A stretch of 64,000 nt of DNA. Origin: a virus. Its lineage: Duplodnaviria; Caudoviricetes. The position numbers and the translations under genes are program-made. Each line of letters starts with the position of its first letter. Position 1 is the first letter of the stretch. The stretch is taken from positions 1 through 64,000 of the IMG/VR virus record IMGVR_UViG_3300025133_009061; one strand, given 5' to 3'. Shown one piece after another: positions 3,864 through 61,877 of the stretch. The notes beneath the pieces are model-generated. The model saw only the letters and a list, made by a program, of their open reading frames with translations. It did no database searches and was not told the origin of the DNA.

Positions 3864-3869
3864 AAAAAT

Positions 3870-20709: not shown

Positions 20710-20737
20710 ATATTACACGCAAAAAGTAGTGTAAAAT
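20710..20737. promoter_or_regulatory. Back-to-back pair of GTGTAA-class motifs
   Basis: Minus strand GTGTAATAT (20718-20710) towards gpM; plus strand AGTGTAAAAT (20728-20737) towards ORF 20750. Confidence 0.7.
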
Positions 20738-44897: not shown

Positions 44898-45693
44898 AGA
44901 AGAATTTGACAGGATTTTAGCTCTCGTTAAAGGAAGGATCCCTTTTGCTTTCTCTCGTTTCTCAGACGGAGAGGTTACGGTGCTGCGAAACAAGACCGTC
45001 GTTCTTGCTGAAGACCACTTCATCCAAGGAGATATTCACGGCGACCAAAAAGTTTATGCTAACAGCTACATGCCTGAGGAACAAAAAAGCTTTATCCCTT
45101 CCCTCAATAAAAGAGAGTACGAAAAACTCATAGAAGCTTTCAAATTTAAGAAAAAAAATTACATAAAAGGTATTCCGGGACAGAACAGTTTGGATGGCGG
45201 ACAATCTTGGAAATTTTGTACGGAATTGTACGGCCCGGACGACTGGGAAAGTTTATCTTTTTGTAACGTGATGATAAATGGAAACTATTCTCGTTTTATT
45301 AAAGAAATGCTTCCTTTGTTCGAGGGTAAAGATATAGTTTTGGTGGCCAATGAGAACTCCAAACTCGATCAGCTTCCATTTGAGGTAAAAAAATTCTTTG
45401 CTGTCGGAAGCAATTGCATGGTAAATAATTTCGATCTACCGGAAGAAGTGGGGGAATGGATAAAAAATAACAACATAAAGGACCACCTTTTTCTTTTTTC
45501 GGCCGCTACGCTGAGTAATTTTTTATGTTACGATTTATTTAGAAGGCACGACAACAACCAGTATATGGATATAGGCTCCTCGCTGGGGCCTCTCCTTCAG
45601 TTGGAGGGATGGAAGTCTAGCAGAACCTATCTATTAGCTTATTGGGGAAACGTAGACCATCCCGTCCTACATGAAGAGGACGTTTGGAGCTGA
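44884..45693 (+). CDS. GT-D fold (DUF1792-like) glycosyltransferase
   Basis: FAFSRFSDGE and DIGS motifs. Confidence 0.6.
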   Translation: MKNYREEFDRILALVKGRIPFAFSRFSDGEVTVLRNKTVVLAEDHFIQGDIHGDQKVYANSYMPEEQKSFIPSLNKREYEKLIEAFKFKKKNYIKGIPGQNSLDGGQSWKFCTELYGPDDWESLSFCNVMINGNYSRFIKEMLPLFEGKDIVLVANENSKLDQLPFEVKKFFAVGSNCMVNNFDLPEEVGEWIKNNNIKDHLFLFSAATLSNFLCYDLFRRHDNNQYMDIGSSLGPLLQLEGWKSSRTYLLAYWGNVDHPVLHEEDVWS

Positions 45694-45694
45694 A

Positions 45695-46333
45695 ATGAAA
45701 ATAACGATACTAACAGATAACCCCAATAGCTGGATCATTCCTTTTGTAGAGAGGTTTAAAACTTTTCTACAGGAAAACCATCAAGTTTCCCATGTCGTCG
45801 ACAAGAAATCGATAACATCGGGAGACATCCTGTTCATGCTATCGTGCGAAAAACTTGTTCCTCAGAAAATTTTAAATTTAAACTCCAACAATATAGTGGT
45901 TCACCCTAGCGCTCTACCTAAAAACAGGGGATGGTCTCCACTTACGTGGCAAATACTAAAAAATAAAAACACTATACCTGTATCACTTTTTGAGGCCGAA
46001 GAAGACATTGACAGTGGCCCTATTTATTTACAAGAAAATATAGAGCTGGATGGTAGCGAACTTATCGACGAAATAAAAAAGAAGCAAGGAGAAACCACAT
46101 TAAAACTTTTGAAAAAATATATCGCTAACCGCAACGCCCTGATACCACTCCCACAGGAAGGCGAACCCTCGTTTTGCAGCAAGATCACCCCAGAGCATAG
46201 CGAAATAAATATTTCGCTTTCGATTAAAGACCAATTCGACAGGCTAAGGGTAGCGGATAACGAAAGGTATCCAGCCTTTTTCCACCACAAAGGAACAAAG
46301 TATATTCTTAAGATTTACAAGGAAAAGAAATGA
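45695..46333 (+). CDS. Formyltransferase-family protein B
   Basis: DILFMLSC...NIVVHPSALPKNRGWSPLTWQIL...DSGPIY...QFDRLRVADN.RYP. Start ATG 45695 follows the upstream TGA. Confidence 0.85.
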   Translation: MKITILTDNPNSWIIPFVERFKTFLQENHQVSHVVDKKSITSGDILFMLSCEKLVPQKILNLNSNNIVVHPSALPKNRGWSPLTWQILKNKNTIPVSLFEAEEDIDSGPIYLQENIELDGSELIDEIKKKQGETTLKLLKKYIANRNALIPLPQEGEPSFCSKITPEHSEINISLSIKDQFDRLRVADNERYPAFFHHKGTKYILKIYKEKK

Positions 46334-46935
46334 GAAACCCTTTTGAAATAGTTGAATGGTTCGAAGAATCTATCGCTGAATATACCGGCGCTCCTTACGC
46401 TATTGCTTGCGATAGTTGCACCGACGCCATATTTCTTTGTTGTAAATATTTACAAGTACAAGGCTCAACAATAACAATCCCCGCTCGCACTTATATTTCT
46501 CCCCCTCAATCTATATTGCAAGCGGGAGCAAAGGTGGAATTTGAAGATATTGAATGGAGCGGAATTTATCAACTTAAACCTCATCCTATTTACGACTCAG
46601 CTAAGCGCCTTACTTCCGGCATGTATATACCGGGCTCGTATATGTGCCTTTCGTTTCACCACAAGAAACCTCTTAAGATAGGAAAAGGGGGAATGATCCT
46701 TACGGACGACACAAAAGCCATAGAAACCATAAGGCGACTGAGGTACGAAGGGCGTACGATAGGCATCCCTTTTCAAGACGACGACCTAGGAGACGGCGGT
46801 TGGAATATGTATATGACACCGGAGCAAGCCGCTAGAGGACTAACTTTACTAATGGGTTACCCAGAACACACAGAAGACCAAGTCGAAGACCCTCCCTACA
46901 GAGACTTGAGGACTTTTAATTTATTTAGAAAATGA
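46330..46935 (+). CDS. DegT/DnrJ/EryC1/StrS-family PLP aminotransferase, short form
   Basis: IACDSCTDA, PARTY, YDSAK, LSFHHKKPL.IG.GGMILTDD; 201 aa with the C-terminal domain absent. Confidence 0.8.
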   Translation: MRNPFEIVEWFEESIAEYTGAPYAIACDSCTDAIFLCCKYLQVQGSTITIPARTYISPPQSILQAGAKVEFEDIEWSGIYQLKPHPIYDSAKRLTSGMYIPGSYMCLSFHHKKPLKIGKGGMILTDDTKAIETIRRLRYEGRTIGIPFQDDDLGDGGWNMYMTPEQAARGLTLLMGYPEHTEDQVEDPPYRDLRTFNLFRK

Positions 46936-47741
46936 AAATCGCTTTATGCTTACATGGATACTTTGTTAATTCCGGAGGTACTCAAGCTTCTGTTCGAGGG
47001 GCACAATATATAAAAGATAACATTACAAAAGACAACAATGTTGATATTTTTGTTCACGGTTGGGAACAGACACCGAGCACCCAAGACTTAATAACCTCTA
47101 CTTATAACCCTACGCAATGCTTGTTTGAAACACAAAATGAATTTGAGGAAGAGTTAAGCAAGATTAAATTTTCTGATTTTGACGACAGTTTTAATCGCGC
47201 TCAAACGGTGTATAAAGGAAATTCTCCTTTTCAAACCTTAAGCTTCCTTTACTCACGTAAACAGGTAATGACCCTCAAAAAAAATCATGAAGAAGAAGCG
47301 GGGTTTAAGTATGACTGCGTAGTGTTAGCTCGTTTTGACTTAGGCCAACGAGGGAAAGAGTGGCCTCAAAAATATTACGCCACAGACATAAGATTTGACC
47401 CTAGCCTAGATATGAATTATCTATATTCATGCTTTTGGGATCAGCTAAATTGGGGCTACGCTGATCACTGGTTCTATTCTAATTCTGCAAATATGGATAT
47501 CGTTGGGAACGCTTTTGACAAAGTTGTGTCTTATTACCAAAGCGATTCTGATTATTCTAAGGCGATAACAAATGGATGGCCGCACAGTAATAACCAAAAC
47601 GAATTTAGCAATGAGATGCTCAAAGATGATCCCTCGGAAGATTTAGTTAAATGGGAAAAGTGGCACTGCATAGACAACCACAAGTACTACAAGTGGTATT
47701 TTCTTGATACGGGACTGTATAAAAAAAGCAAATTTGTATGA
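46932..47741 (+). CDS. Putative glycosyltransferase / glycan-modifying protein
   Basis: MKIALCLHG, DIFVHGW, YDCVVLARFDL, YADHWFYSN. Confidence 0.5.
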   Translation: MKIALCLHGYFVNSGGTQASVRGAQYIKDNITKDNNVDIFVHGWEQTPSTQDLITSTYNPTQCLFETQNEFEEELSKIKFSDFDDSFNRAQTVYKGNSPFQTLSFLYSRKQVMTLKKNHEEEAGFKYDCVVLARFDLGQRGKEWPQKYYATDIRFDPSLDMNYLYSCFWDQLNWGYADHWFYSNSANMDIVGNAFDKVVSYYQSDSDYSKAITNGWPHSNNQNEFSNEMLKDDPSEDLVKWEKWHCIDNHKYYKWYFLDTGLYKKSKFV

Positions 47742-48472
47742 CCAATATAAAGGACATTTCAATTATTATGTATTCTCATCACGATTATGGTGATGTATGG
47801 CCCATGTTCACCGGTCAGATAGATAAATATTTTCCAAAAGAAGTTAACAGGTTGATATTTTCAAACACGACAACTCTCCCAATACCGGAAGGGTGGAAAA
47901 TTATAGAATACGACGACGGCTCCGCTTACAACAACAAAGTCTCGTCTTGTCTCTCTAAAATAAATACAGAATTTTGTCTATATCATCAAGAAGATATGCC
48001 TCTGTACGATTCCCCCGACATAAAAACAATAGAATCATTTCTCCCTGAGATTTCCAAAGGCAACATAGATTTTGTTAAGCTTATTAAAGGCGGCCTAACT
48101 GAAGACGTCCCCTATAGATTTCGTTATCCCGGTTTATTTAAAATACCAAGTGACGCTCAGTACATTTACGCTAACCAACCCAGCGTCTGGAAAACATCCC
48201 GACTTAAAGAGATATTCCAATACACTTTCACACCCACTATAAGAGACTTTGAAATAAAAGCCCAAAATAGTTGCCGAGCTTTAGATATCAAAGGATGTTA
48301 TACCCACAACAAAGAGAGCCAAAGAGGTGAACTCCACTGGGACTCCTCAGTTTATCCTTATGTGGCGACTGCTATAGTGAAGGGTAAATGGAACACTTCT
48401 CAGTACCCCCAAGAACTACGTGAATTATTCAAACAATATAAAATAGACCCATCAAAAAGGGGGGAAGCATGA
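47738..48472 (+). CDS. GT-A-like hypothetical glycosyltransferase
   Basis: SIIMYSH..Y.DVW, FCLYHQED, NQPSVWK. Confidence 0.5.
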   Translation: MTNIKDISIIMYSHHDYGDVWPMFTGQIDKYFPKEVNRLIFSNTTTLPIPEGWKIIEYDDGSAYNNKVSSCLSKINTEFCLYHQEDMPLYDSPDIKTIESFLPEISKGNIDFVKLIKGGLTEDVPYRFRYPGLFKIPSDAQYIYANQPSVWKTSRLKEIFQYTFTPTIRDFEIKAQNSCRALDIKGCYTHNKESQRGELHWDSSVYPYVATAIVKGKWNTSQYPQELRELFKQYKIDPSKRGEA

Positions 48473-48999
48473 TCAAGCTTTTGATTTTAGATGTAGACGG
48501 CGTCTTAACCGATGGAAGAAAAACCTACAATGCAGAAGGACTCGGGTGTTATAAAGTTTTTTGTGATAAGGATTTCACGGCGATAAAACGCCTCAAAGCA
48601 GCGGGGGTCAAGGTGTGCTTTCTGTCCGGAGACGAGAACATAAACAGGGCCATAGCTAAAAACAGGGATATAGACTTCTACTTCTCTAGAGGCAAGTGCA
48701 AGACGGCTTTTCTGAAAACCTTCAGTAAAAAATATAATTGTTCTTTTTCTGAAATGGCCTTCGTGGGGGACGATCTTTTTGATTTATTGATCGCTGAAGA
48801 AGTCGGCTATTCTTTTTGTCCGTCCGATTCATGTCCCGAAATTAAAGAAGAAGCAAGCCTTGTGCTGGAAAACAAAGGAGGGGAAAACGTAATAATGGAA
48901 CTGGTAACCTACCTAACCAACAACAAACTGATTCCCACCACTTCACCCAAGGAAACGTTAGAAAGAGTCTACGCACTGGATGAAAAAGAAAAGTTTTAA
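48469..48999 (+). CDS. KdsC-like HAD sugar-phosphate phosphatase
   Basis: LDVDGVLTDG, LSG, FVGDDLFD, GGENVIME. Confidence 0.85.
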   Translation: MIKLLILDVDGVLTDGRKTYNAEGLGCYKVFCDKDFTAIKRLKAAGVKVCFLSGDENINRAIAKNRDIDFYFSRGKCKTAFLKTFSKKYNCSFSEMAFVGDDLFDLLIAEEVGYSFCPSDSCPEIKEEASLVLENKGGENVIMELVTYLTNNKLIPTTSPKETLERVYALDEKEKF

Positions 49000-49690
49000 A
49001 CTGGCACTTTTTGGAAAGCGTTACCAAGACCGGATTTTTTCTATACCCACCTTTAAAAAGGGGGAAACAAATATAGCCAAGACCACCGAGGTCCAACTAG
49101 GAGGAATTTATAATATTGACAGGTTAAAATTCCCCCGCCTCAAAACTAAACTCTTTGAGGAAGGCAGCGTCGAAGCGGTTATAATCAGTGAGTTAAAAAG
49201 CTCGAAACGTAGTTCTATCCTTTCCAATCCGCAATCTTTTGAAAGAAGGGATACCTCATGGAAAAACTCCCATGACTGGACCCATCTAGCTTATGTAGAT
49301 GATATTCATTCTTCCTATTTGCCTTATTTTTCGCAGCCCAACGTAAGCATTGACTTCTGTACCCTAGATCCACGGGAGAAATATTTACCGATTATTCATG
49401 CTTGCTCTATAGTGTTCGATTCCCGAGAAAGGAAGCCGCTTTACAACAAAATAAGAACTAAAACGCCCCTAATGTTTCATGACGAATACGGCTGTGAATG
49501 CGTGGTTGACGGAAAATCCACCCATTCCTTTAAAATGAAACCCATAAAAGGCCTTCAAGTTAACGGAGCCGGGGATATATTTTGTGGAATATTTCTTTTT
49601 CAACTGTATAATTTAGGTCTAGAGGTGGCCGTTAAAACGGCATGTAGAAAAACCACCGACTATTTAAAACTAAACTATGAAAAAGTATAA
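48980..49690 (+). CDS. PfkB-family carbohydrate kinase, divergent
   Basis: C-terminal VNGAGDIFCG anion-hole signature. Confidence 0.7.
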   Translation: MKKKSFKLALFGKRYQDRIFSIPTFKKGETNIAKTTEVQLGGIYNIDRLKFPRLKTKLFEEGSVEAVIISELKSSKRSSILSNPQSFERRDTSWKNSHDWTHLAYVDDIHSSYLPYFSQPNVSIDFCTLDPREKYLPIIHACSIVFDSRERKPLYNKIRTKTPLMFHDEYGCECVVDGKSTHSFKMKPIKGLQVNGAGDIFCGIFLFQLYNLGLEVAVKTACRKTTDYLKLNYEKV

Positions 49691-50834
49691 CCTGCTTCTT
49701 CCTATCGCAGGCAAAGCGCAAAGGTTCTTGGACAAGGGGTATACAATGCCCAAACCCCTAATAATGACCAAAGACAGGCATGTTATCGACTGGTCCATGG
49801 ATTCTATCGACATGGATGAGTGTAACGTAATCTTTGCAGTACGCTTAGAGCATATCAACAATTTTTCTATAGACGATATCTTGAGGCAAAAATTTGGTGA
49901 CGACATTAAAATCGTAGTGATAGACCGGATAACAGACGGTTCCGTTTCAACATGCTTATTAGCCAAAAATCTAATTAACAATGATTTACCCTTAATAATC
50001 TACACCCCAGATGTTTACTTTGAAGATCCGTTTATTCCTGCGGCAATCGATCCTAGTTTAGACGGCTTTATTTTGACCTTTAAGGCCAACAGTCCGGCCC
50101 ACAGCTATGTAGAACTCAATGAGTCAGGGCTTGCGGCGCGCACAGCGGAGAAAGAAGTGATAAGCGAAAACGCGGCCGTAGGAGTCTACTATTACAAAAC
50201 AGGCAGGATGTTTGTGAAATATGCGGAAGAAATGGTCGAAAAAAATATAAGGACTAAAAATGAGTTCTATATTTGCCCCATGTATAATTCATTAATTCGT
50301 GATGGGCTAAAAGTAGGGATATCTCAAGTTAAAAAAATGCATGTTTTAGGAACTCCTCCCGAATTAGAGTTTTTTATTGATCATGTTACGAGTCGCTTTG
50401 GGGAAAAGCCAGTGGCCCTTTGTGGAGACCATTCGGGATTCGACATGAAGACTATTGCCCAAAAGGTATTGGACAAAAATCAAATTCCCTACATAGACTT
50501 TGGTACCTATGTTAAAAAAGATTGTGACTATAACGAATATGTCATGGCGGCAGCGGATTCAATAAAAAACAAAGTATGTGATTTCGGAATGGGTTTTTGT
50601 CGGACTGGTCAAGGAATCAATATACTTGCAAATCACCTAGAAGGAACAACGTCAGCTTTGGTTATAGATGATTATATGGCCGAATATGCCTTACGACACA
50701 ACTGTGCTAATTTCTTTTCTATTCCGGAAAAATATGTTTCTGAGAACGACTTGGACAGAATGGTTAAGATTTGGAAAAAAACTTCGTTTGACGGAGGAAG
50801 ACATATGACCCGAATGAAGAAAACAAGGGGGTAG
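49677..50834 (+). CDS. Sugar nucleotidyltransferase fused to an RpiB-type sugar-phosphate isomerase
   Basis: N-terminal LPIAGKAQRF..GY..PKPLI; C-terminal CGDHSGF, FCRTGQG..ILAN, ALRHNCAN. Confidence 0.85.
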   Translation: MKKYNLLLPIAGKAQRFLDKGYTMPKPLIMTKDRHVIDWSMDSIDMDECNVIFAVRLEHINNFSIDDILRQKFGDDIKIVVIDRITDGSVSTCLLAKNLINNDLPLIIYTPDVYFEDPFIPAAIDPSLDGFILTFKANSPAHSYVELNESGLAARTAEKEVISENAAVGVYYYKTGRMFVKYAEEMVEKNIRTKNEFYICPMYNSLIRDGLKVGISQVKKMHVLGTPPELEFFIDHVTSRFGEKPVALCGDHSGFDMKTIAQKVLDKNQIPYIDFGTYVKKDCDYNEYVMAAADSIKNKVCDFGMGFCRTGQGINILANHLEGTTSALVIDDYMAEYALRHNCANFFSIPEKYVSENDLDRMVKIWKKTSFDGGRHMTRMKKTRG

Positions 50835-50836
50835 CG

Positions 50837-51484
50837 ATGAAAGACATAAAGCTACACAAGAGACTTCTGAAGTTGCTCCATGACCACAACGAAGAACATA
50901 TGGGGAGCTGTTTTTCATGCGTTGATATCATAGATAATATTTTTGAAAACAAATCCAAGGAGGATATTTTTGTTCTATCTAACGGTCATGCTGCTTTTGC
51001 TCTCTATTCAGTACTAGAAAAATATTACCCCCACATAGATGCAGACAAACTCGTCGAACGTCACGGTGGTCATCCAAACCGAGACGAAGAAAACCATATC
51101 TATTGTTCGACAGGGAGCCTTGGAATGGGAATCATGATAGCGGTAGGTCGTGCAGTTACGAACCCTAACCGCACAGTTTACGCGATGATCAGTGATGGGG
51201 AATCCACCGAAGGTTCCGTCTGGGAAGCTCTGAGATATATAGAAGAAAAGAATGTAGAAAATATTGAAGTTCATGTTAATGCGAACGGGTATGCTTGTTA
51301 CGATGAGATGGATGTTGATTATTTGGAACGAAGATGTAAGGCCTTCATGCCGAGAATTCATTTTCATAGAACCAAAGATCAAACTTTTCCATTTTCTTTC
51401 TTGCAGGGTCTAGACGCACACTATATAAAAATAAACAAAAAACAATACGGAGAAGCTTTGGAGGCCCTAAACAATGAGTGTTAG
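50837..51484 (+). CDS. Transketolase-like ThDP enzyme, N-terminal subunit
   Basis: LSNGHA, STGSLGMG, SDGESTEGSVWEA, NAN. Confidence 0.9.
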   Translation: MKDIKLHKRLLKLLHDHNEEHMGSCFSCVDIIDNIFENKSKEDIFVLSNGHAAFALYSVLEKYYPHIDADKLVERHGGHPNRDEENHIYCSTGSLGMGIMIAVGRAVTNPNRTVYAMISDGESTEGSVWEALRYIEEKNVENIEVHVNANGYACYDEMDVDYLERRCKAFMPRIHFHRTKDQTFPFSFLQGLDAHYIKINKKQYGEALEALNNEC

Positions 51485-51953
51485 AAAAACTTTCGTCAAA
51501 CTTTTACACGACCAAATGAAAAGAAATAAAAAAATAGTTTTAATTCTTGGTGATTTGGGTTACGGGCATTTTGACGCTATTAGGGAAGAATTTCCGCGTA
51601 GAGTCTTTAACCCCGGCGCGGCGGAGCAGCTAATGTTAGGGATGGCTTGCGGGATGGCCATGGAAGACAAAATACCCGTATGTTACTCCATGACTCCGTT
51701 TATTTTATATCGACCATTTGAAATAATAAGAACCTTTATAGATCATGAAAAGATTCCCATTATTCTTGCGGCAGCGGGGAGAGACAAAGACTACGCTTCG
51801 GCAGGGTGGTCTCACTGGGCAACTGACGACAAAGAACATTTATCAGGCTTTAAAAATATTTCAAAACTCTGGCCGGACGAACAGTTACTTGAAACGGAAT
51901 TTCCAAATATAATAAACACTCAGCTTCCCTATTATGTTAATTTGTCGAGGTAA
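51474..51953 (+). CDS. Transketolase-like ThDP enzyme, pyrimidine-binding subunit, short
   Basis: GDLG, NPGAAEQ.M.GMA.GMA, RPFEIIR, SHWATDD; no C-terminal domain. Confidence 0.85.
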   Translation: MSVRKTFVKLLHDQMKRNKKIVLILGDLGYGHFDAIREEFPRRVFNPGAAEQLMLGMACGMAMEDKIPVCYSMTPFILYRPFEIIRTFIDHEKIPIILAAAGRDKDYASAGWSHWATDDKEHLSGFKNISKLWPDEQLLETEFPNIINTQLPYYVNLSR

Positions 51954-51955
51954 TT

Positions 51956-52039
51956 ATGGACTTTGATTTATTAGTACAAGGCCCGCTAAACAAGCAAAGG
52001 GTATGCGTGGTATGGTGGGAATGGATTTTTAAAATATGA
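51956..52039 (+). pseudogene. Probable gene remnant, 27 aa
   Basis: MDFDLLVQGPLNKQRVCVVWWEWIFKI. Its start and stop are coupled to both neighbours, and the VQGP N-terminus is typical of glycan-locus proteins. Confidence 0.4.
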
Positions 52040-52455
52040 TTCTAATAGCACATAGAGCTAACTTAAACGGGCCAGACTACTCTACAGCAAACACTCCCCG
52101 CCAGATAAATAAAGTTATAGAACTGGGGCTAAACTGCGAAGTAGACGTGTGGAAAGTTAACGACGACTTTTTTCTAGGACACGACGAACCCAAGTATAAA
52201 ACAGAGTTGGAATTTTTAAAAAACGACAAACTATGGTGTCACGCCAAAAATTTGGAAGCCTTGGAGAGCATGCTTTATAATAACATACATTGCTTTTGGC
52301 ACGAAACCGACAAATTCACAGTAACCTCGAAGGGATATATCTGGACGTTTCCCGGCGAGAAAGTTGTAGACAAGTCGGTGATCGTACATAAAGATGCTGA
52401 ATGGGAAAACAAATATGATTGTCATGCGGTGTGCAGTGACTATTTAACCACGTAA
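52036..52455 (+). CDS. GDPD/PLC-like phosphodiesterase, short form
   Basis: IAHRAN, EVDVW, LGHD, WCHAKN. Confidence 0.75.
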   Translation: MILIAHRANLNGPDYSTANTPRQINKVIELGLNCEVDVWKVNDDFFLGHDEPKYKTELEFLKNDKLWCHAKNLEALESMLYNNIHCFWHETDKFTVTSKGYIWTFPGEKVVDKSVIVHKDAEWENKYDCHAVCSDYLTT

Positions 52456-52456
52456 T

Positions 52457-53509
52457 ATGAAAAAAGTACTAATAACGGGAATACTTGGCCAAGACGGAGC
52501 TAACATGGCTGAGTACCTATTGTCTTTGGAAGGCGACATGGAGATATACGGAATGATGCGCCGAACCTCCAACGTTAATAAAAGTAACATTGAAGCCTTT
52601 GAGAACCATCCTAGCTTTAACTTGGTTTACGGTGACTTAACCGACAATATTTCGATCGACAAGGTAGTAAGAGAAATCCAGCCTGATTATTTTATTAATT
52701 TTGGAGCTAATTCCTTCGTAGGGTGCAGCTGGGACATGCCACTACAGGTTTTCGATGTTAATACTTTGGGGGTTATCCGATCCTTGGAAGCTATTAGAAA
52801 GTTTAAGCCGGAGTGTCGTTTTTACAGCGCCGGAAGCTCTGAGGAATTAGGTGATGTGGACTACAGTCCTCAGGACATAAACCACCCCATTAAAGCGAGA
52901 AGCCCATACGGAGCCTCAAAAGCAGCCTCGCGCCATTTAGTGAAAGTTTATAGGGAATCTTACAATATGTTTGCAATCCACAGTATCCTCTTTAACCACG
53001 AAGGACTTCGCCGGGGGGAAGAGTTCGTCACAAGAAAGATTACCAAAGGGGTTGCTCAAATCAAACGGGCAATAGACGCAGGGTCAGACTTTACCCCACT
53101 TCAGCTCGGAAACGTAAACGCAAGGCGAGATTGGTCTGATTCGGAAGACTTTATTAGGGCGGTATGGCTGATGCTCAACCAAAAAGAACCAAAAGAGTAT
53201 GTTCTTTCCAGCAATGAAACTCATAGCGTAAAGGAATTTGTTTCACTAGCCTTCCAAGAAGCGGGAATAGCGGGTTTATGGAGCGGTGAAGGCTTGGATG
53301 AAAAATTTAGAATTTTTCAGGAAAATAAAATTTTAGCAGAAGTGAATGAAGATTTTTATCGTCCTGCGGAAGTTGACCTGCTCTACGGTGACTCTAATCC
53401 TATTCGAGAAGAGTTAGGGTGGAAACCCAAGTTTTCCTTCCAAGATTTAGTCAAAAGGATGGTAAATAATGACCTTGAAATTGCAAAAAAACGGGCTTTT
53501 TCCCCCTGA
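52457..53509 (+). CDS. gmd: GDP-mannose 4,6-dehydratase
   Basis: LITGILGQDG, GDLTD, SSEELG, RSPYGASK, FNHEG.RRGEEFVTRKIT, RDW, RPAEVD.L.GD. Confidence 0.95.
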   Translation: MKKVLITGILGQDGANMAEYLLSLEGDMEIYGMMRRTSNVNKSNIEAFENHPSFNLVYGDLTDNISIDKVVREIQPDYFINFGANSFVGCSWDMPLQVFDVNTLGVIRSLEAIRKFKPECRFYSAGSSEELGDVDYSPQDINHPIKARSPYGASKAASRHLVKVYRESYNMFAIHSILFNHEGLRRGEEFVTRKITKGVAQIKRAIDAGSDFTPLQLGNVNARRDWSDSEDFIRAVWLMLNQKEPKEYVLSSNETHSVKEFVSLAFQEAGIAGLWSGEGLDEKFRIFQENKILAEVNEDFYRPAEVDLLYGDSNPIREELGWKPKFSFQDLVKRMVNNDLEIAKKRAFSP

Positions 53510-53956: not shown

Positions 53957-55054
53957 ATGGCAGAAAAGAAAAAAAAGAAAGAGTCTAAACTATTTGACGA
54001 CCCCATTGCTCAAATAAAGAGTTATCTTGATGAAAACAAAGAGGATCACTTTAACTTTGAAGAGGCTCCTACCTACGTGGTTTCCAGTGGAAGTTTGTTA
54101 CTGGATATAGAAATGGGAGGAGGAATTCGTCCTTCTATCATCCGTGCTTCCGGTCTAGCGGAAGGAGGTAAAACTTCATGCGCTCTTTCTTTTGCTAAAA
54201 ACTTTCAGAACACGGTAGATAACGGGATGGTTATCTATATAAAGTCGGAAGGAAGGCTTTCCCCTGAAATGATCGAACGCTCAGGGGTGGATACTTCTCC
54301 AGAAAAATGGTTTGTTTATAAAAGTAACATTTTTGAGAGCATCTTGCAATTAATGAAGGATTTAGTTACAAACAATTCCACAGACTGTAAATATTTTTTT
54401 ATTGTTGATTCGATGGATGCCATGGTTCCCAAAAACGACATAGATAAACCGTTTGAGGAATCCGATAAAGTTGCGGGGGGGTCGGTTTTAAGCTCTAACT
54501 TTTTGAAGAAAATGGCGTTGGCTCTTTCGAGTAGGGGTCATATTTGCTTTATGATTTCTCAAGTAAGGAGCAAAGTTAGCGTCAATAAGTTTGACACGGG
54601 TGACCCCAAACTTACAAACGCTTCCGGAGGAAACGCGTTGCTCCACTATTCGGACTGGATTTTGGAGTTTCAGCCCCGCTACCAAAAAGATATGATACCC
54701 CCCAAGTCAGACAGTCCACAAGGACACAACTGCAAGGTTATCTTCAGAAAGTCCGCAAATGAAAAAACGGGTAAAAAGGTAGAGTACCCAATTAAATATG
54801 GCCGCACAAACGGCAGAAGCGTCTGGACAGAGTATGAAGTTATCGGAATGCTTTTGCAGTGGGAGATGGCTAAAGCCAGCGGCGCTTGGATCACCGTGGG
54901 AGAACCTTTAATTAAAGAACTTAAAAAGGCGGGCTTAGAAATGACGGTCAAACATCACGGCGAAGAGAATTTGCGTAAATACTTGGAAGATAATATAAAA
55001 ATATGCGAGTTCCTTTTTAATAAATTTAGAAAAGCTTTACAAATTACAAAGTGA
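53957..55054 (+). CDS. recA: RecA/UvsX-family recombinase
   Basis: SSGSLLLD, GLAEGGKTS, IVDS, ISQVR, SGGNALLHYS. Confidence 0.93.
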   Translation: MAEKKKKKESKLFDDPIAQIKSYLDENKEDHFNFEEAPTYVVSSGSLLLDIEMGGGIRPSIIRASGLAEGGKTSCALSFAKNFQNTVDNGMVIYIKSEGRLSPEMIERSGVDTSPEKWFVYKSNIFESILQLMKDLVTNNSTDCKYFFIVDSMDAMVPKNDIDKPFEESDKVAGGSVLSSNFLKKMALALSSRGHICFMISQVRSKVSVNKFDTGDPKLTNASGGNALLHYSDWILEFQPRYQKDMIPPKSDSPQGHNCKVIFRKSANEKTGKKVEYPIKYGRTNGRSVWTEYEVIGMLLQWEMAKASGAWITVGEPLIKELKKAGLEMTVKHHGEENLRKYLEDNIKICEFLFNKFRKALQITK

Positions 55055-55467
55055 AGCTTTACAACACTTATGGAAGACTCGTATCTAAGAACGTTCAAAA
55101 GTATCGCGTTAAATGGGAAGGTAAATGCCGCTCCAACATTCAATTTAAAGTTAAACAATTTTTTAAACCTTATTGGATAAATCACATTTGCTATGAAGAA
55201 TTCCCCGTTTATGGAACACGAATGAAGGTAGACATGATAAATATGACAAAACGTATTGCCGTAGAAGTTCAGGGCGCTCAACACGAGTCTTTCAATAAGT
55301 TTTTTCACGGTAATTCTCGCGCAAAATACCTTGCTTCCATAAAAAGAGATTATGAGAAAAGGATATGGCTTGAAAATAATAATTTTAAAGTTTTAGAAAT
55401 AAGAGAAGAAGATTTAGCGTCCCTTTCTAGGGGGTACATTTTGGAGAAATTTGAAGTAAACATTTAA
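55051..55467 (+). CDS. Restriction-endonuclease-fold (Vsr/DUF559-like) nuclease
   Basis: EEFPV...VDMIN...AVEVQGAQH...D.EKRIW. Confidence 0.75.
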   Translation: MKLYNTYGRLVSKNVQKYRVKWEGKCRSNIQFKVKQFFKPYWINHICYEEFPVYGTRMKVDMINMTKRIAVEVQGAQHESFNKFFHGNSRAKYLASIKRDYEKRIWLENNNFKVLEIREEDLASLSRGYILEKFEVNI

Positions 55468-55470
55468 AAT

Positions 55471-55481
55471 AGTGTAATTAT
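55471..55481 (+). promoter_or_regulatory. GTGTAAT-class phage promoter motif
   Basis: AAATAGTGTAATTATCC is identical to the site before the tape measure gene; 4 nt to the ATG. Confidence 0.75.
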
Positions 55482-55485
55482 CCTT

Positions 55486-55770
55486 ATGACAGTAAACGAA
55501 GAGAATAGAATACCGGATATCTTGTTGGATCAGTTAAGTGAATGGTCCTGTGGGGGGTTCATGCTTTTCAATTTTGACGAACAAGGTAACCCGCAGGTTT
55601 ATTCGAAGGCGGAAGACGAAATGAATGCTATGTCTTTACAATACTTTGTGAGTCATTGGTCAAACGCGATGGAGACAATGAACTCGGACAGTTTTATGAA
55701 CAATTTAAATACTGTCTTTAAAAAACAAGATAAACAAGACGAAGAAGAAGGGTTTGAAGAAAATGAGTGA
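55486..55770 (+). CDS. Hypothetical acidic protein co-transcribed with the tubulin gene
   Basis: 94 aa; its stop overlaps the tubulin start. Confidence 0.75.
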   Translation: MTVNEENRIPDILLDQLSEWSCGGFMLFNFDEQGNPQVYSKAEDEMNAMSLQYFVSHWSNAMETMNSDSFMNNLNTVFKKQDKQDEEEGFEENE

Positions 55771-57052
55771 TACCAGTATAAACGAATACTATCCAGAAAA
55801 TAAACCATCCGAAGCGGTCCCCTCTCTTGTAGCGGGAGAAGCTATTACTCCTCCAAGCGGCGCACTACTACCAGAGAGTGACGCAACACCTGAGGAACAA
55901 AAAGAGGCTCTTGGGGTAACACCTACGGAAGTAACCGATTTAGGAATAGACCTTCCAGACATTCCACTTCCTGACGACGAACCCTTAGAGGACGATATTA
56001 AAGACGAGTTTAAAGATGCCGCCTTTAATTTTGCAGTTGTGGGGGTAGGCCAAGGGGGGTCTAGAATTGCGGAATCTTTTTGGAACTTAGGTTATCGGAG
56101 AGTAGGTATAATAAATACCGCTCAACAAGATTTATCTTTGATTAATATCCCCGATGAGAACAAGCTTCTCATAGGGGATGGGGGAGCTGGGAAAAATCCA
56201 GAAGCCGCAGATGAAGTTTTCCGGACGAGGTACGAAGACATTTTAGACTTTCTCAAGAAGACTTTTGGGAATGGATACGAAAGAGTTTTGGTTTGTGCGG
56301 GGGCAGGAGGAGGCACCGGAGCCGGAGGTGTCGCTAGGGTTATAGATATATGCCACGACCTTAGTCAATCGCTGGGTAAAGAAAAGAAAGATACGGACGC
56401 AAAAATTGGCTGTATTCTGGCTCTTCCGACAAGGGGAGAGGGGATAAAGGTTCAGGAGAACGCCAAGAATACGGTTCTTAGAACGCTCGAGCTTCAAAAA
56501 GCCGGGGTAGTTTCTCCATTGGTCATTTTAGATAATGAAAAAATTAAGCAACTTTACCCCAAGCTGAGCGTTAATCAGTTTTGGGGCACGGCAAACAACA
56601 GCGTCTGCTCCATCTTCCACCTCTTTAATAAGATTTCGGCGAAAGAGTCAGCTTACACCACTTTCGACAAGGCCGATCTGGATACCATTTTCTCTTCTGG
56701 GATAATCATGTTCGGAGCGACACCGGTAAAGGATTATACCGATACGGGCATATCCTACGCGGTAAGAGATAACTTGCGCAAAAACATCTTAGCAGGGATA
56801 GACGCGGCTACAGGAAATGTGGCCGCATGCGTTATTATTGGCGACAAAGGGTCTCTCGACAGGATTCCTCAATCCAGTTTGGAGCATGGGTTTGAGCAAC
56901 TGAGTCGAATGATGGGGGCTGGATCAACTGTTCATAGGGGAATTTACGCAGGAGCAAAGGAAGGCGTAGCTGTATACACAGCGATAGGCGGCTTACAGGC
57001 TCCTGATACTCTTTTTGACTATTTCTTCAAGGTAGATCGGGTATACAAATAA
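55763..57052 (+). CDS. Tubulin/FtsZ-family GTPase with an acidic N-terminal extension
   Basis: VVGVGQGGSRIA, INTA, GAGK, GAGGGTGAG signature, LDNE, FDKAD (T7 loop). Start ATG 55763. Confidence 0.9.
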   Translation: MSDTSINEYYPENKPSEAVPSLVAGEAITPPSGALLPESDATPEEQKEALGVTPTEVTDLGIDLPDIPLPDDEPLEDDIKDEFKDAAFNFAVVGVGQGGSRIAESFWNLGYRRVGIINTAQQDLSLINIPDENKLLIGDGGAGKNPEAADEVFRTRYEDILDFLKKTFGNGYERVLVCAGAGGGTGAGGVARVIDICHDLSQSLGKEKKDTDAKIGCILALPTRGEGIKVQENAKNTVLRTLELQKAGVVSPLVILDNEKIKQLYPKLSVNQFWGTANNSVCSIFHLFNKISAKESAYTTFDKADLDTIFSSGIIMFGATPVKDYTDTGISYAVRDNLRKNILAGIDAATGNVAACVIIGDKGSLDRIPQSSLEHGFEQLSRMMGAGSTVHRGIYAGAKEGVAVYTAIGGLQAPDTLFDYFFKVDRVYK

Positions 57053-57055
57053 TAG

Positions 57056-58567
57056 ATGCCCATATACTCTAATCAGATCGAGAGTCACGTCTTAGGCGGA
57101 CTTCTCAAACACCCTGATGTATTATCCGAGATAGATTCCTTCGTTAATGCAGCGGATTTTTATAATGACATTCATCAGACTATTTTTTGTGTTTTAAGGG
57201 ATTCCGTCCTTAATAACGAAAAGGTAGATAAGGTACTCGTTGCCACAAAAATATCTAATCTCGGGATTTCGTCCAAAGACGACATTGACATTTATGATTA
57301 CATCAATACGTTAAGTCATACGTCTATAACACGTGAGGCAGTCGCCGACTTCTGCAAAGAACTTAAGAAAGTCAGAGTTAGGAGAGAGTTAAGTGAAACC
57401 GCCGATCGAATAAAAGAGCACGTTTCCAAATTCTCAAATGATGATTTGGATTCAATTATAGCTTCAACGGATGCCATTTATAGTGAAAAGATCCTGAGTT
57501 ATTCGTTTGAAGACGCTCCGCAGAATGTTTTCGAAGATATTGAGTCGAAAATTAACGAAAGAGCAGATAACCCCGTTGAAGATACAGGGCTCATGACCCC
57601 CTTCCCCGCGTTTAACCGCCTTTATGGGGGGTTAAGGGATGGAAATATTTACGCTATCGTTTCTAGGCCAGCACAAGGCAAAACAACCTTCATAAATGAA
57701 ATGTGTCTTGGGACGGCGATTAGAAATAATGTTCCGGTATTAGTGCTCGACACAGAAATGGGGACCGAGGAAATCCAATTTCGAATGGCGGCAGCACAAA
57801 CAGGAGTCCCCCTTTGGCACCTTGAGACAGGGAGGTGGAGAAGCGATGAAGAAATGGCTCCCAAAGTAGAAGAGTATTTTTCGGAACTCAAAAAACACAA
57901 ATATTTCCATTACCACGTCAAGAATAAAACGGCTGATGAAGTATGTGCTATTATACGTAGATGGCACATGAGATACGTGGGCCGAGAAAACAGATGTATC
58001 GTTGCGTACGATTACGTTAAACTAACAGGAGAAAAGGTGGATAGAAACTGGGCCGAACACCAAGCTATTGGAGAAAAGATAGACAAACTTAAACGTGTGG
58101 CTGAAGAAATAAAAGCTCCTCTCATCACCGCCATGCAAATGAACCGTTCTGGTGAAAACTTAGTAGACGATAGTTCAGCCATCTCACTTTCCGATCGTCT
58201 CCAGTGGTTTGCTACGTTTGTTGCAATTTTCCGGCGAAAGACGATAGACGAAATGGATAATGATGGTGAAAGATTTGGGACTCATAAACTTATCCCCCTA
58301 AAGACGCGTTTTCAAGGACGGGAAGCTGCGGGACATCAGGATTTGATAAGAAGAAGAGTTACGGAGGTAATATATGGACAACAAGTAGAGAACGAAAAAT
58401 ATGTAAAAAATTATTTAAATTTTAGAGTGGAAAACTTTAAGGTAAAGGAAGAAGGAACGTTAGAAGACATAGTCAGGCACGATCACCAACCTCGTAACAT
58501 TCAACCTGAAACCACCGCTGAGTCGGGAATGGATGTTTTTATGGGGACCGGACCCACCACTACTTGA
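57056..58567 (+). CDS. dnaB: Replicative DNA helicase
   Basis: ESHVLGGLL, SRPAQGKTT, DTEM, YDYVKL, AMQMNR, LKTR. Confidence 0.92.
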   Translation: MPIYSNQIESHVLGGLLKHPDVLSEIDSFVNAADFYNDIHQTIFCVLRDSVLNNEKVDKVLVATKISNLGISSKDDIDIYDYINTLSHTSITREAVADFCKELKKVRVRRELSETADRIKEHVSKFSNDDLDSIIASTDAIYSEKILSYSFEDAPQNVFEDIESKINERADNPVEDTGLMTPFPAFNRLYGGLRDGNIYAIVSRPAQGKTTFINEMCLGTAIRNNVPVLVLDTEMGTEEIQFRMAAAQTGVPLWHLETGRWRSDEEMAPKVEEYFSELKKHKYFHYHVKNKTADEVCAIIRRWHMRYVGRENRCIVAYDYVKLTGEKVDRNWAEHQAIGEKIDKLKRVAEEIKAPLITAMQMNRSGENLVDDSSAISLSDRLQWFATFVAIFRRKTIDEMDNDGERFGTHKLIPLKTRFQGREAAGHQDLIRRRVTEVIYGQQVENEKYVKNYLNFRVENFKVKEEGTLEDIVRHDHQPRNIQPETTAESGMDVFMGTGPTTT

Positions 58568-59463
58568 TGGATTATGACATAAAAGAAATATTGTCCGAAC
58601 TGGGGTACTCCCTCCTCGACATGGGAAAGGAATACAGAACTAGTCCTCTCTACAGAGACTCAAGTAGCAACTCTGTTTTGTGTATAAAAAAGGATACGGG
58701 ACGCTGGATCGACTACAAAGACCAAAGATACGGCCGGTTCGAAGAGTTGGTGCAAATCACCCTTAATCTCAAAGATATTTCCGAAGCTAAGCAATATCTG
58801 GTTAAAGAATTTCATTTTGTAGCTCCCAAGCTGGAAAAAGAAAAACTTAAGAGTCCAAAAATATTCGGGAAAGAGAACCTAAAACACATCATCCCAGCTT
58901 ATTCTTATTGGACCAAACGAGGAGTGTCCCCAGACACTCTCAAGTTGTTGGAGAGCGGTGTTATGACGTCAGGAAAAATGGAAAACAGATATGTTTTTCC
59001 TATTTTTGATAGAACTAACAGGCTCGTGGGGGTAGCGGGAAGAGACATAACAAATAAGAGTCAAACTAAATGGAAGCTCGTGGGGGAAAAACGGTTATGG
59101 GTTTATCCCCTGAAGTACAATATGAAATATTTTACGAAAAACGGGAGCGTTATACTGGTGGAGAGCATTGGTGACATGTTGGCGTTATGGGAAGTTGGTA
59201 TAAGAAATGTTATTGTTACTTTTGGACTTTTTGTATCACCTAAGATCAAACAAACTTTGATGATGATTAATGCTCAAAAAATTTATATAGCTTTTAACAA
59301 CGATACGAATAATGCCGGAAACGAAGGAGCAACAAAAGCCTACCACAACCTCACTAAACAATTTGATGACTACCAAGTAGAAATAACCCTTCCTCCGAAA
59401 AATGACTTTGGAAACATGACTAAGGACGAAATACTAGAATGGAAAAGCCAAATAAAAATATAA
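58567..59463 (+). CDS. dnaG: DNA primase (TOPRIM) with a degenerate zinc finger
   Basis: RYVFPI, GVAGR, LVESIGD, AFNND...G..GA. ATG 58567 overlaps the dnaB TGA. Confidence 0.85.
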   Translation: MDYDIKEILSELGYSLLDMGKEYRTSPLYRDSSSNSVLCIKKDTGRWIDYKDQRYGRFEELVQITLNLKDISEAKQYLVKEFHFVAPKLEKEKLKSPKIFGKENLKHIIPAYSYWTKRGVSPDTLKLLESGVMTSGKMENRYVFPIFDRTNRLVGVAGRDITNKSQTKWKLVGEKRLWVYPLKYNMKYFTKNGSVILVESIGDMLALWEVGIRNVIVTFGLFVSPKIKQTLMMINAQKIYIAFNNDTNNAGNEGATKAYHNLTKQFDDYQVEITLPPKNDFGNMTKDEILEWKSQIKI

Positions 59464-60434: not shown

Positions 60435-60454
60435 AACACGTACACTCGGTGTTC

Positions 60455-61219
60455 ATGGATGAGATACTCCCCATATTTAAAAGCCATTACAGTTTGGGAC
60501 GTTCAATTTTAACCCTAAACAAACCGAAAAATACTCCTGAAAACGAAGGCGCGGATTCAATTTTTGATATTTGTCAAGAGGGCGGAATAAAAGATTTATT
60601 TCTAGTGGAAGATAATATGGCGGGTTTTTTGGAGGCTTACGCTAATGCCGAAGAGCTTCAAATAAAATTAATTTTTGGATTAAGGCTTACTTTCTGCTTG
60701 GATAACTCGAACAAAAGCGAAGAAGGGAGACGAAACTCCTACAAGAATATAATTTTTGCTAAAAACGCTGAAGGCTACAAACAACTTATTAAAATTTATA
60801 CCCGCGCTGCTCAAGAAGGGTTTTATTACGAACCTCGTATAGATTTCAACAGCTTGAAGCAATTCTGGACCGACGACTTACTATTAACTGTCCCCTTTTA
60901 TGATTCGTTTCTCTACTTAAATAAATATACCGATTCGAAATGTGTACCAGATTTTTCTTACGCTACTCCTACGTTTTTTCTCGAAGATAACGATACTCTC
61001 TTAGATCGGGACATGGGTAAGAGAGTGAAGGATTTTTGTGCAAATAAATATCAAATAATTCGCACTAAAAGTATTTATTATAAAAACAGAGAAGACTTTG
61101 GCGCGTACTTAACCTTTCGCTGCATCAACAAGAGAACGAATGTTCAGAAGCCGAACATGGACGGCATGTGTTCTGGTGAATTTTGTTACGAAAGTTACTT
61201 GGAGGTGGTAAATGGATAA
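60455..61219 (+). CDS. Stand-alone PHP domain of DNA polymerase III alpha
   Basis: FKSHYSLGRSIL, LVEDNMAGF, IFAKNAEGYKQL, PRID. Several PHP metal ligands look replaced. Confidence 0.8.
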   Translation: MDEILPIFKSHYSLGRSILTLNKPKNTPENEGADSIFDICQEGGIKDLFLVEDNMAGFLEAYANAEELQIKLIFGLRLTFCLDNSNKSEEGRRNSYKNIIFAKNAEGYKQLIKIYTRAAQEGFYYEPRIDFNSLKQFWTDDLLLTVPFYDSFLYLNKYTDSKCVPDFSYATPTFFLEDNDTLLDRDMGKRVKDFCANKYQIIRTKSIYYKNREDFGAYLTFRCINKRTNVQKPNMDGMCSGEFCYESYLEVVNG

Positions 61220-61877
61220 TCACTTATTAAGGTTTCAAAAGAAAAAATTTCTTTTTTTAGATTTCGAGACCTTTAACCTTAACCATCATTCTGATTTTAA
61301 CTTACCATGGCAGGTTGGTTTAATCTACCTCGAAACAGACGAAGGAGCCAACGGAAAAATAAGAAATAAGGAACTTTGTCGCCATGATCTGTACCTTAAA
61401 TGGGATAGTGACTTACGAATTGGCAAGGAAGCTAAAAAAATAACTGGCTACACCGAAAAGAGATTTCAAGAAAAGTGTATCCCTCAAGAAAAAGCGTTTG
61501 AGATAGTTTACGACTTGGTTGAGAAATGTGATTATATAGTAGGGCATAACGTCTTAGGTTTTGATGTTTATTTACTGAGAAATTGGTACAAAAAACACGG
61601 AAAAAAATACAATGACCTACCGTATAAAATACTCGATACTTTTGCTATGGCAAAATCAATAGGATTGAATTATGGTTATAAAAGCGCAGAATGTAGTTTG
61701 CTAGATTTTCAATTAAAAATGATTAATATCCGCAAAAAAGGCCTTCGAACCAGTTTGGGAGCTTTAGGTAAATCTTACGATGTTAAATATGACGCCTCTA
61801 AACTTCACGACGCGTTAGCTGATTTAGAGCTAAATATAAAAGTTTGGGATAAACTTAAGTATCACATAGATTTTTAA
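61212..61877 (+). CDS. DEDDh 3'-5' exonuclease (epsilon-like)
   Basis: LDFET, GHNVLGFD, HDALAD. Confidence 0.88.
   Translation: MDNHLLRFQKKKFLFLDFETFNLNHHSDFNLPWQVGLIYLETDEGANGKIRNKELCRHDLYLKWDSDLRIGKEAKKITGYTEKRFQEKCIPQEKAFEIVYDLVEKCDYIVGHNVLGFDVYLLRNWYKKHGKKYNDLPYKILDTFAMAKSIGLNYGYKSAECSLLDFQLKMINIRKKGLRTSLGALGKSYDVKYDASKLHDALADLELNIKVWDKLKYHIDF

Follow-up and report, generated by a model that had tools for sequence, protein, structure and literature searches.

A predicted TubZ/RepX-like tubulin with its tail at the N-terminus in the replication operon of uncultured marine siphophages

Detailed knowledge of phage cytoskeletons is limited to PhuZ, from jumbo myoviruses that form a nucleus, and to the TubZ of one plasmid-prophage. 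The PhuZ proteins of phages 201phi2-1 and phiKZ are phage-encoded tubulins that position the replicating phage DNA; they end in an acidic C-terminal tail and work together with a chimallin shell. The TubZRC systems, such as those of the Bacillus thuringiensis plasmid pBtoxis and of Clostridium phage c-st, depend on TubR, on tubC and on the C-terminal tail of TubZ. FtsZ, which belongs to the same superfamily as archaeal CetZ, has a C-terminal linker and a conserved C-terminal peptide. RepX (TubZ-Bc; PDB 4ei7-4ei9), from pXO1-type Bacillus plasmids, is reported to be required for the replication and stability of pXO1 (PMC2875224). Here we describe a tubulin-like gene in a 64,000-nucleotide (nt) stretch of viral DNA (IMG/VR record IMGVR_UViG_3300025133_009061, positions 1 to 64,000; hereafter the window). 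The interval 55471-57052 of this window holds two overlapping plus-strand open reading frames (ORFs), namely orf94, encoding an acidic protein of 94 amino acids (aa), followed by the tubulin-like gene itself.

The encoded protein represents a tubulin lineage different from those known in detail, and its gene is the most conserved one of the replisome operon in abundant, uncultured marine siphophages of ∼170 kb in which no shell protein was found. We propose, with about as much confidence as doubt, that it is a polymerising phage tubulin of the TubZ/RepX kind that would serve, during lytic infection, to organise replicating phage DNA or the replisome or to hold them in position, with its N-terminal tail as the coupling element.

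Fold, relatives and tail of the phage tubulin

The window gene, as judged from its sequence and a structure model, encodes an intact GTPase of the tubulin/FtsZ superfamily, in agreement with the first-pass annotation made from the DNA sequence, which had recognized intact GTPase motifs. The Pfam Tubulin model (PF00091) matches residues 91-265 (E 3.8e-12, 47.3 bits versus a cut-off of 33 bits), and both the T1 (GVGQGG) and T4 (GAGGGTGAG) loops are present and kept in an alignment of 98 family sequences, most of which share 28-45% identity with the window protein. The T7 loop, FDKAD, aligns with the NVDFAD loop of E. coli FtsZ, whose acidic residues activate GTP hydrolysis in the adjoining subunit; D302 is invariant across the 98 sequences, and D305 is invariant in a further alignment (A5). 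The AlphaFold2 (AF2) model, computed from the family alignment, displays the two-domain tubulin fold (predicted local distance difference test, pLDDT, 88.2; predicted template modelling score, pTM, 0.82). In a structure search with VIA, which is independent of Foldseek, all tubulin-family structures scored Z 22-36 and unrelated Rossmann folds at most 9.5. The values are 36.4 for TubZ-Bc (4ei7), 34.9 for CetZ2, 34.2 for TubZ-Bt, 32.2 for the TubZ of phage c-st, 29.6 for FtsZ, ∼26 for tubulins and 21.7-22.7 for PhuZ. At E<=0.01 the window protein had no reported match to the Pfam domain TubZ-like_C (PF22453), which two family members, P0124 and P0170, do contain and which is recorded for P0126, P0133 and P0122.

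With the single sequence as query, phmmer finds RepX/TubZ-Bc (4ei7) as the best match (2.5e-13), and FtsZs at 1e-9 or weaker. The family profile scores RepX at 153 bits (8.3e-44), the FtsZ of M. jannaschii and CetZ at 111-114 bits, and the TubZ proteins of phage c-st and pBtoxis at 105 and 87 bits, respectively; PhuZ is not among the best 60 matches of the profile. TubZ-Bc is also matched by Foldseek (E 1e-24), and VIA superposes it with a root-mean-square deviation of 2.6 over 332 residues. FtsZ and CetZ are members of the same superfamily (Z 29.6 and 32-35), and CetZ comes near the TubZ values in structure (Z 34.9 and 32.3), with 111-114 profile bits versus 153 for RepX.

In the first-pass annotation, a recent capture of a host ftsZ was named as an origin that would speak against its reading. 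We reject such an origin: the NCBIfam ftsZ equivalog model (TIGR00065) gives 57.7 bits versus a cut-off of 295.2 bits, the identity to FtsZ is ∼20-22%, the best relatives are RepX and TubZ, and E. coli FtsZ is set apart by its very long branch in a maximum-likelihood tree, quickly computed from 54 members of the family, four plasmid homologues and six references (E. coli FtsZ being the single FtsZ, used as outgroup, and CetZ not being included). The window protein falls there in a fully supported clade of eight, with PhuZ outside, and the TubZ, RepX and PhuZ lineages nest inside the viral diversity with weak support (80-83). With its one FtsZ and no CetZ, the tree speaks to a recent FtsZ capture, which it rules out, and not to the deep order. 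Two further identities were tried and rejected, that of a PhuZ with its phage nucleus (Z ∼22, outside the best 60 profile matches, no chimallin) and that of a canonical TubZRC system (for which neither a TubR-like fold signal nor tubC repeats nor a C-terminal tail were found).

RepX is the nearest solved relative of the phage protein. The two have in common the two-domain fold, the GGGTG signature and the acidic T7 pair, and RepX, too, is linked to the replication of its replicon (PMC2875224). Yet, their identity is only ∼21-22%; in RepX, strand S1 is preceded by ∼14 residues and the C-terminal tail is ∼60 residues long. Relatives of RepX reside on low-copy plasmids of Bacillota with a winged-helix gene upstream, whereas the phage protein has an acidic N-terminal tail of 88 residues, and neither a TubR-like gene nor centromere repeats were detected with it in the searches described below. 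The TubZ proteins of pBtoxis and c-st, the latter being phage-borne too, have a similar fold, but the TubR, tubC repeats and C-terminal tail of their systems were not found for the phage tubulin. PhuZ differs by its acidic C-terminal tail and its chimallin partner in jumbo phages, the source phage of the window being a lambda-tailed siphophage in which no shell was found.

The most distinctive trait of the protein is the position of its tail. The first-pass annotation had noticed about 80 acidic, Pro-rich residues before the fold and almost nothing after it; this inverted architecture is borne out, with 88 residues ahead of the fold and seven behind, and characterizes the family as a whole. 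Residues 1-88 have a net charge of -19.5 and contain 12 prolines, while the core is neutral. In the AF2 model the core comprises residues 89-422 and seven residues follow the last short helix; residues 1-60 are disordered (pLDDT 49-69 in the linker), and residues 61-88 reach a pLDDT of ∼78 yet are devoid of secondary structure. When aligned with RepX (pXO1), a homologue from a Planococcus plasmid, TubZ (pBtoxis), TubZ (phage c-st), E. coli FtsZ and PhuZ (201phi2-1), the viral proteins reverse the arrangement of these references, which have at most 25 residues before strand S1 and a C-terminal extension of 40-90 residues. Across the 98 family members, the N-terminal extension has a median length of 41 aa (range 3-94) and is net negative in 89%, and the C-terminal extension has a median of 6.5 aa. 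A flexible C-terminal tail of the TubR-binding type is seen neither in the AF2 model of the window protein nor in its alignment with the references.

The tail starts with a short peptide, MSDT-x-I-x-x-YYP, in which T4, Y9, Y10 and P11 are invariant among 17 close homologues (alignment A1), and which is retained in all 36 full-length copies from IMG/VR. It is followed by a linker that varies in length and sequence (median of 47.5 aa in the 36 copies), and then by the DLGIDLPDIPLPDDE block, where L64-P70 are invariant among the 17 close homologues and DLPDIPLP is found in 35 of the 36 copies. A looser motif (acidic-hydrophobic-Pro-x-hydrophobic) recurs in distant members 24-28 residues (about 26) before strand S1, and because of this recurrence at a set distance we regard it as a hallmark of the family. 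The strict DLGIDLPDIPLPDDE motif was not found outside the tubulin, either in the window or in a relative of 170 kb. Two loci of a sister lineage (L072 and L076) have another end peptide (MDYK-x-YM) on the same linker-plus-motif plan. A conserved end peptide on a predicted disordered linker mirrors the linker and peptide of FtsZ at the opposite end of the molecule; at its C-terminus the phage tubulin has neither of them.

The replisome operon and the wider family

The tubulin gene overlaps orf94 by 8 nt, and dnaB starts 3 nt past its stop codon. Its coupling to an acidic ORF of 94 aa and its place directly before dnaB and dnaG, both noticed by the first-pass annotation, are kept in 40 IMG/VR loci of the close clade, all of which, as far as the contigs extend, show the same order recA-nuc138-orf94-tubulin-dnaB-dnaG-PDDEXK-PHP-exo. 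Among the most divergent of the 40 loci, the tubulin is 73-80% identical, as compared to 56-60% for dnaB, 45-48% for dnaG, ∼60% for recA and 46-51% for orf94, which makes it the best-conserved gene of the replisome operon. The sister-lineage loci have the order nuclease-tubulin-dnaB-dnaG, with the tubulin directly after the nuclease.

The nuclease of this order is a basic protein of 138 aa (pI, isoelectric point, 9.7; net charge +10.8) with a restriction-endonuclease-like D-x10-E-V-Q pattern, located between recA and the tubulin module in every member of the clade and also kept in the sister lineage. Its PHROG family name would make it a mobile homing endonuclease, an assignment that we reject, as it is a conserved core gene of the operon in the clade and its sister.

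The product of orf94 has a net charge of -15; its residues 8-66 form a near-invariant core, and its tail reads EEEEGxEENE. It is found beside the tubulin in all 40 loci of the close clade, and its homologues (n = 138, all at least 66% identical) are unnamed or hypothetical in their sources. No match was obtained in Pfam, PHROG, NCBIfam or PADLOC, and the ESM Atlas returned only unnamed viral clusters. Its AF2 model is unreliable (pLDDT 52) and too poor to exclude a cryptic fold; no winged-helix signal was detected even at E<=1. As expected for TubR, the small gene immediately upstream of the homologues on Bacillales and Cetobacterium plasmids has a winged-helix match in three of the four cases tested. 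No orf94 is present in the two sister-lineage loci, on the basis of which we rejected it as an obligatory partner of the tubulin. The first-pass annotation had proposed it as a candidate adaptor; the case is weakened by the lack of a winged-helix signal, by its strongly acidic nature, by the low confidence of the model and by its absence from the sister lineage. Against the PDB, the orf94 profile gave a non-significant match (E 0.22) to H. influenzae HI1723 (2apn), a HesB/IscA-type protein, and its stretch C-G-G-F-x-L-F-x-F-D-E recalls the IscA motif GCSGxxYxFxFD; both are to be seen as leads only.

The family extends well beyond this clade. A HMMER scan of 1.84 billion representatives yielded 1414 clusters (at 50% identity) at E<=1e-3 and 208 at E<=1e-30, the clusters at 90% identity include hundreds of marine copies (Tara, ENA, JGI) on contigs of up to 195 kb, and at least 285 relatives are found in IMG/VR. 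A pattern-limited scan of 185,579 species genomes gave only two matches, both on contigs of metagenome-assembled genomes. Searches of 50,697 GenBank phages with tblastn and blastn gave no relative for either the tubulin or the 8-kb region, and neither the tubulin nor orf94 matched a family in PHROGs. We found no description of this viral tubulin family in the literature, in a search that was incomplete for subscription journals. To judge from these searches, the family is large, viral and, as far as our literature search reached, previously undescribed.

Six relatives (P0124, P0143, P0160, P0170, P0192 and P0241) are 800-960 aa long and contain inteins with LAGLIDADG homing endonucleases. The intein of P0124 lies directly after the GQGG of the T1 loop, and the others between positions equivalent to query residues ∼141 and 184, at the GGGTG of T4. 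Such insertion in or near the T1 and T4 loops is typical of proteins that a phage cannot do without. We know of no report of inteins in proteins of the tubulin family.

Possible roles of the tubulin

We searched the window and three near-complete relatives (G001, G002 and G003; 100%, 90% and 96% complete, with one tubulin gene each) for features of known tubulin systems and of lysogeny. Chimallin (PF25677, phiKZ gp54) was found in none of the three relatives, in a search that has the sensitivity of one Pfam model and in which phiKZ, the positive control, scored 1121 bits. None was found in the window either, so that the statement of the first-pass annotation that no shell gene is recognizable there is upheld, likewise in these relatives at least 90% complete. 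The same three relatives have no detected tyrosine integrase or ParA-type ATPase. No tubC-like repeat array was found in the 52-60 kb region of the window and no tandem repeats near the tubulin, and a scan of the window for k-mer clusters returned none. G001 carries five copies of CTGTAGTTA within ∼620 bp (163749-164376, L117/L116), as well as a 33-35-nt unit repeated 2.3 times (103036-103113). From their sequence, both are candidate origin, iteron or centromere-like sites; they lie far from the tubulin operon, outside the part that is colinear with the window.

In the mechanism that we favor, tubulin subunits would polymerise head-to-tail, each GTP site being completed by the T7 loop of the adjacent subunit, and would form dynamic polar filaments. 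The protein would be made together with the phage replisome (the recA-like protein, the nuclease, DnaB, DnaG and a split polymerase III, Pol III), and the filaments would keep the replicating phage DNA, or the replisome, organised or in position, with neither a shell nor a TubR adaptor nor a centromere array. Such a role would be analogous to that of PhuZ for the phage nucleus, and would resemble that of RepX/TubZ for plasmids. The N-terminal tail could couple the filament to a cargo, an anchor or a neighbouring subunit, replacing the C-terminal tails of FtsZ, TubZ and PhuZ: the DLPDIPLP segment, at its fixed distance, might dock on its own core or on the next subunit, and the disordered acidic linker might present the MSDT..YYP end peptide to a cargo or anchor partner. 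The analysis itself establishes the fold, motifs, family placement, architecture, synteny and conservation; that the protein polymerises, when it is expressed, what its cargo is and what the tail does are the parts that we infer. Three functions had been put forward by the first-pass annotation, namely the positioning of replication factories, DNA partition and a block of host division; sequence alone cannot separate them, and the gene context favors the first. A bolder version, which we put forward tentatively and think rather unlikely, is that of a virus-restricted, ocean-abundant branch of tubulins in which the tethering tail was moved from the C- to the N-terminus, the motif would make the tail-in-trans contact of the C-terminal tails of TubZ and PhuZ, and the end peptide would grab the replisome, phage DNA or, by mimicking the tail peptide of FtsZ, a host anchor, thereby forming a new replication-stage spindle in lytic phages that build no nucleus.

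Several observations weigh against a replisome-positioning filament. The pLDDT of the AF2 model is the single ground for the docking of residues 61-88, and no cargo adaptor or DNA site was identified. Distant members of the family adjoin a T4 gp13-like gene, glycosyltransferases or a ligase, and the link to replication may thus be clade-specific, being firm, from gene order, only for this clade and its sister. One of the near-complete relatives, G002, is classed as 'provirus' by IMG/VR, so that a non-lytic state may exist, and the tree is a quick one with a single FtsZ outgroup and weak deep support (80-83).

The provirus label would fit a type III-like partition of an episomal phage genome in a carrier or pseudolysogenic state, in which the tubulin would deliver phage genomes to the daughter cells, with orf94 or the 138-aa protein as adaptor and a cryptic centromere, as for c-st TubZ and the Bacillus plasmids. 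The closest solved relatives are indeed partition or replication tubulins, the upstream neighbour is a small gene coupled in translation, an arrangement that matches tubR-tubZ of plasmids, and there is the 10-nt repeat cluster of the 170-kb relative, though far away. However, orf94 is acidic, has no winged-helix signal (present in three of four upstream genes of the plasmids) and is absent from the sister lineage; no repeat array is found near the operon, nor a C-terminal TubR-binding tail in the protein, nor an integrase or ParA in the near-complete relatives, and an own Pol III, ribonucleotide reductase and recombinase give the impression of a lytic gene content. We therefore hold partition to be quite unlikely. 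The neighbours of the distant members, which include a head-completion (gp13-like) gene or unrelated genes, would be compatible with late-stage trafficking or another role outside replication, in which filaments move capsids or other cargo or shape the cell and the operon position is incidental; PhuZ has been reported to traffic capsids (PMC13282480). Yet, no locus of the clade has the gene anywhere but between the nuclease and dnaB, and the gene product is far from PhuZ, so that such a role appears very unlikely.

Phages often block host division, and the protein might act on the host division machinery, with the motif engaging anchors of the FtsA, ZipA or SepF type, or host FtsZ itself, resulting in a division block or a membrane tether. 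It shares the superfamily of FtsZ, and its acidic flexible tail bears a conserved short motif with a 'DIP' that loosely resembles 'DIPxFL' in the C-terminal peptide of FtsZ. But the motif is devoid of the aromatic and basic residues of that peptide and has acidic residues after it, the protein is TubZ/RepX-like (57.7 versus 295 bits for the ftsZ model, ∼20-22% identity to FtsZ), and the gene is placed and conserved with replisome genes; we consider this hijacking unlikely. That the protein is a non-polymerising GTPase or a decaying relic, which has kept the tubulin fold for nucleotide binding only, is hardly credible in view of the nucleotide-binding and T7 loops conserved over hundreds of divergent copies and of the tubulin being the most conserved gene of its operon.

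The wider family amounts to hundreds of sequence clusters across many large phages. If its members do polymerise and position DNA, virus-made filaments that organise the cell interior would be a general trait of large phages and not a speciality of the phage nucleus, and the reversed tail would offer a natural experiment on how tubulin-type filaments are coupled to their cargo.

Gene layout and the source phage

The positions of the operon genes and of the elements within the tubulin are given in Table 1. The longest possible frame of the tubulin gene starts at TTG 55754; we prefer ATG 55763 as the likely start because the MSDT... N-terminus is kept in all close homologues.

Table 1. Genes and sequence elements of the tubulin locus (window coordinates).
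Feature	Position	Strand	Evidence and remarks
recA/UvsX-like recombinase	53957..55054	+	Pfam RecA 5.7e-21; phrog_97 3e-35; syntenic in 40 IMG/VR loci; upstream operon member
138-aa basic nuclease-fold protein	55051..55467	+	phrog_9084 6.3e-07; weak DUF559 match
TAGTGTAAT box	55470..55478	+	7 nt before orf94 start codon; candidate promoter/regulatory element
orf94, acidic 94-aa protein	55486..55770	+	pI 4.05; stop overlaps tubulin start
Tubulin/FtsZ-superfamily TubZ/RepX-like GTPase (predicted), 429 aa	55763..57052	+	PF00091 47.3 bits; AF2 model; VIA search; profile match to RepX
N-terminal peptide MSDT-x-I-x-x-YYP, residues 1-11	55763..55795	+	candidate docking peptide
Acidic Pro-rich disordered linker, residues 12-58	55796..55936	+	variable length; indels and low identity among close homologues
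DLGIDLPDIPLPDDE motif, residues 59-73	55937..55981	+	invariant; family hallmark D-hydrophobic-P-x-hydrophobic
T1 loop GVGQGG, residues 94-99	56042..56059	+	G96, G99 invariant in 98-sequence alignment
T4 tubulin signature GAGGGTGAG, residues 180-188	56300..56326	+	G182-G184, G186, G188 conserved family-wide
T7 loop FDKAD, residues 301-305	56663..56677	+	catalytic acidic pair D302, D305
DnaB-type replicative helicase	57056..58567	+	Pfam DnaB, DnaB_C; phrog_19 5.7e-56
DnaG-type primase	58564..59463	+	Toprim, DNAG_N matches; phrog_47 2.2e-29

Downstream of dnaG follow genes for a PDDEXK nuclease, a PHP protein and a 3'-5' exonuclease, and then a DnaE-type polymerase. A Pol III-type replicase is thereby split into separate genes (PHP at 60449-61219, 3'-5' exonuclease at 61212-61877, DnaE from 62098); the nearest DnaE of a cultured phage, from Enterococcus and Streptomyces phages, is ∼31% identical.

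The window also carries genes for a tape-measure protein of 2249 aa, a lambda-J-like tip protein and a minor tail protein, and these lambda-type tail genes identify the source as a long-tailed siphophage. The size of the tape-measure protein (window 3891-10640) points to a tail of unusual length for a siphophage. The window is colinear with G001, an IMG/VR contig of 170,406 bp (CheckV 100% complete), with 66-72% nucleotide identity in the aligned segments. The source is an uncultured marine siphophage of ∼165-170 kb, with a host that is likewise uncultured, and looks strictly lytic.

Directly upstream of the replication operon lies a nucleotide-sugar/glycan island of ∼15 kb (38648-53509), whose target could be the virion, the host surface or DNA. 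It encodes a UDP-N-acetylglucosamine (UDP-GlcNAc) 2-epimerase, two enzymes of the GDP-mannose-dehydratase type, two formyltransferase-like proteins and a fragment of a DegT-type aminotransferase, along with GT2 and GT-D-like transferases, a GDSL hydrolase, a HAD phosphatase, an RpiB fusion and a split transketolase. An ORF of 200 aa (37687-38289) matches Sigma-70 region 2 at 5.3e-06, barely over the Pfam cut-off, and is a possible phage sigma factor.

The TAGTGTAAT box ahead of orf94 occurs in three exact copies in the window (1735, 3869 and 55470), versus ∼0.5 expected from length alone. Those at 3869 and 55470 precede the start codons of the tape-measure gene and orf94 by 13 and 7 nt, respectively; the copy at 1735 is intergenic, after a stop at 1676 and with no mapped start. 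Copies with one mismatch lie at 20727 and 61882, ahead of starts at 20750 and 61908, so that in four genes, among them orf94 and the tape-measure gene, a box of this type stands 7-17 nt ahead of the start codon. From its sequence and placement, TAGTGTAAT is possibly a phage promoter, a regulatory element or a translation signal.

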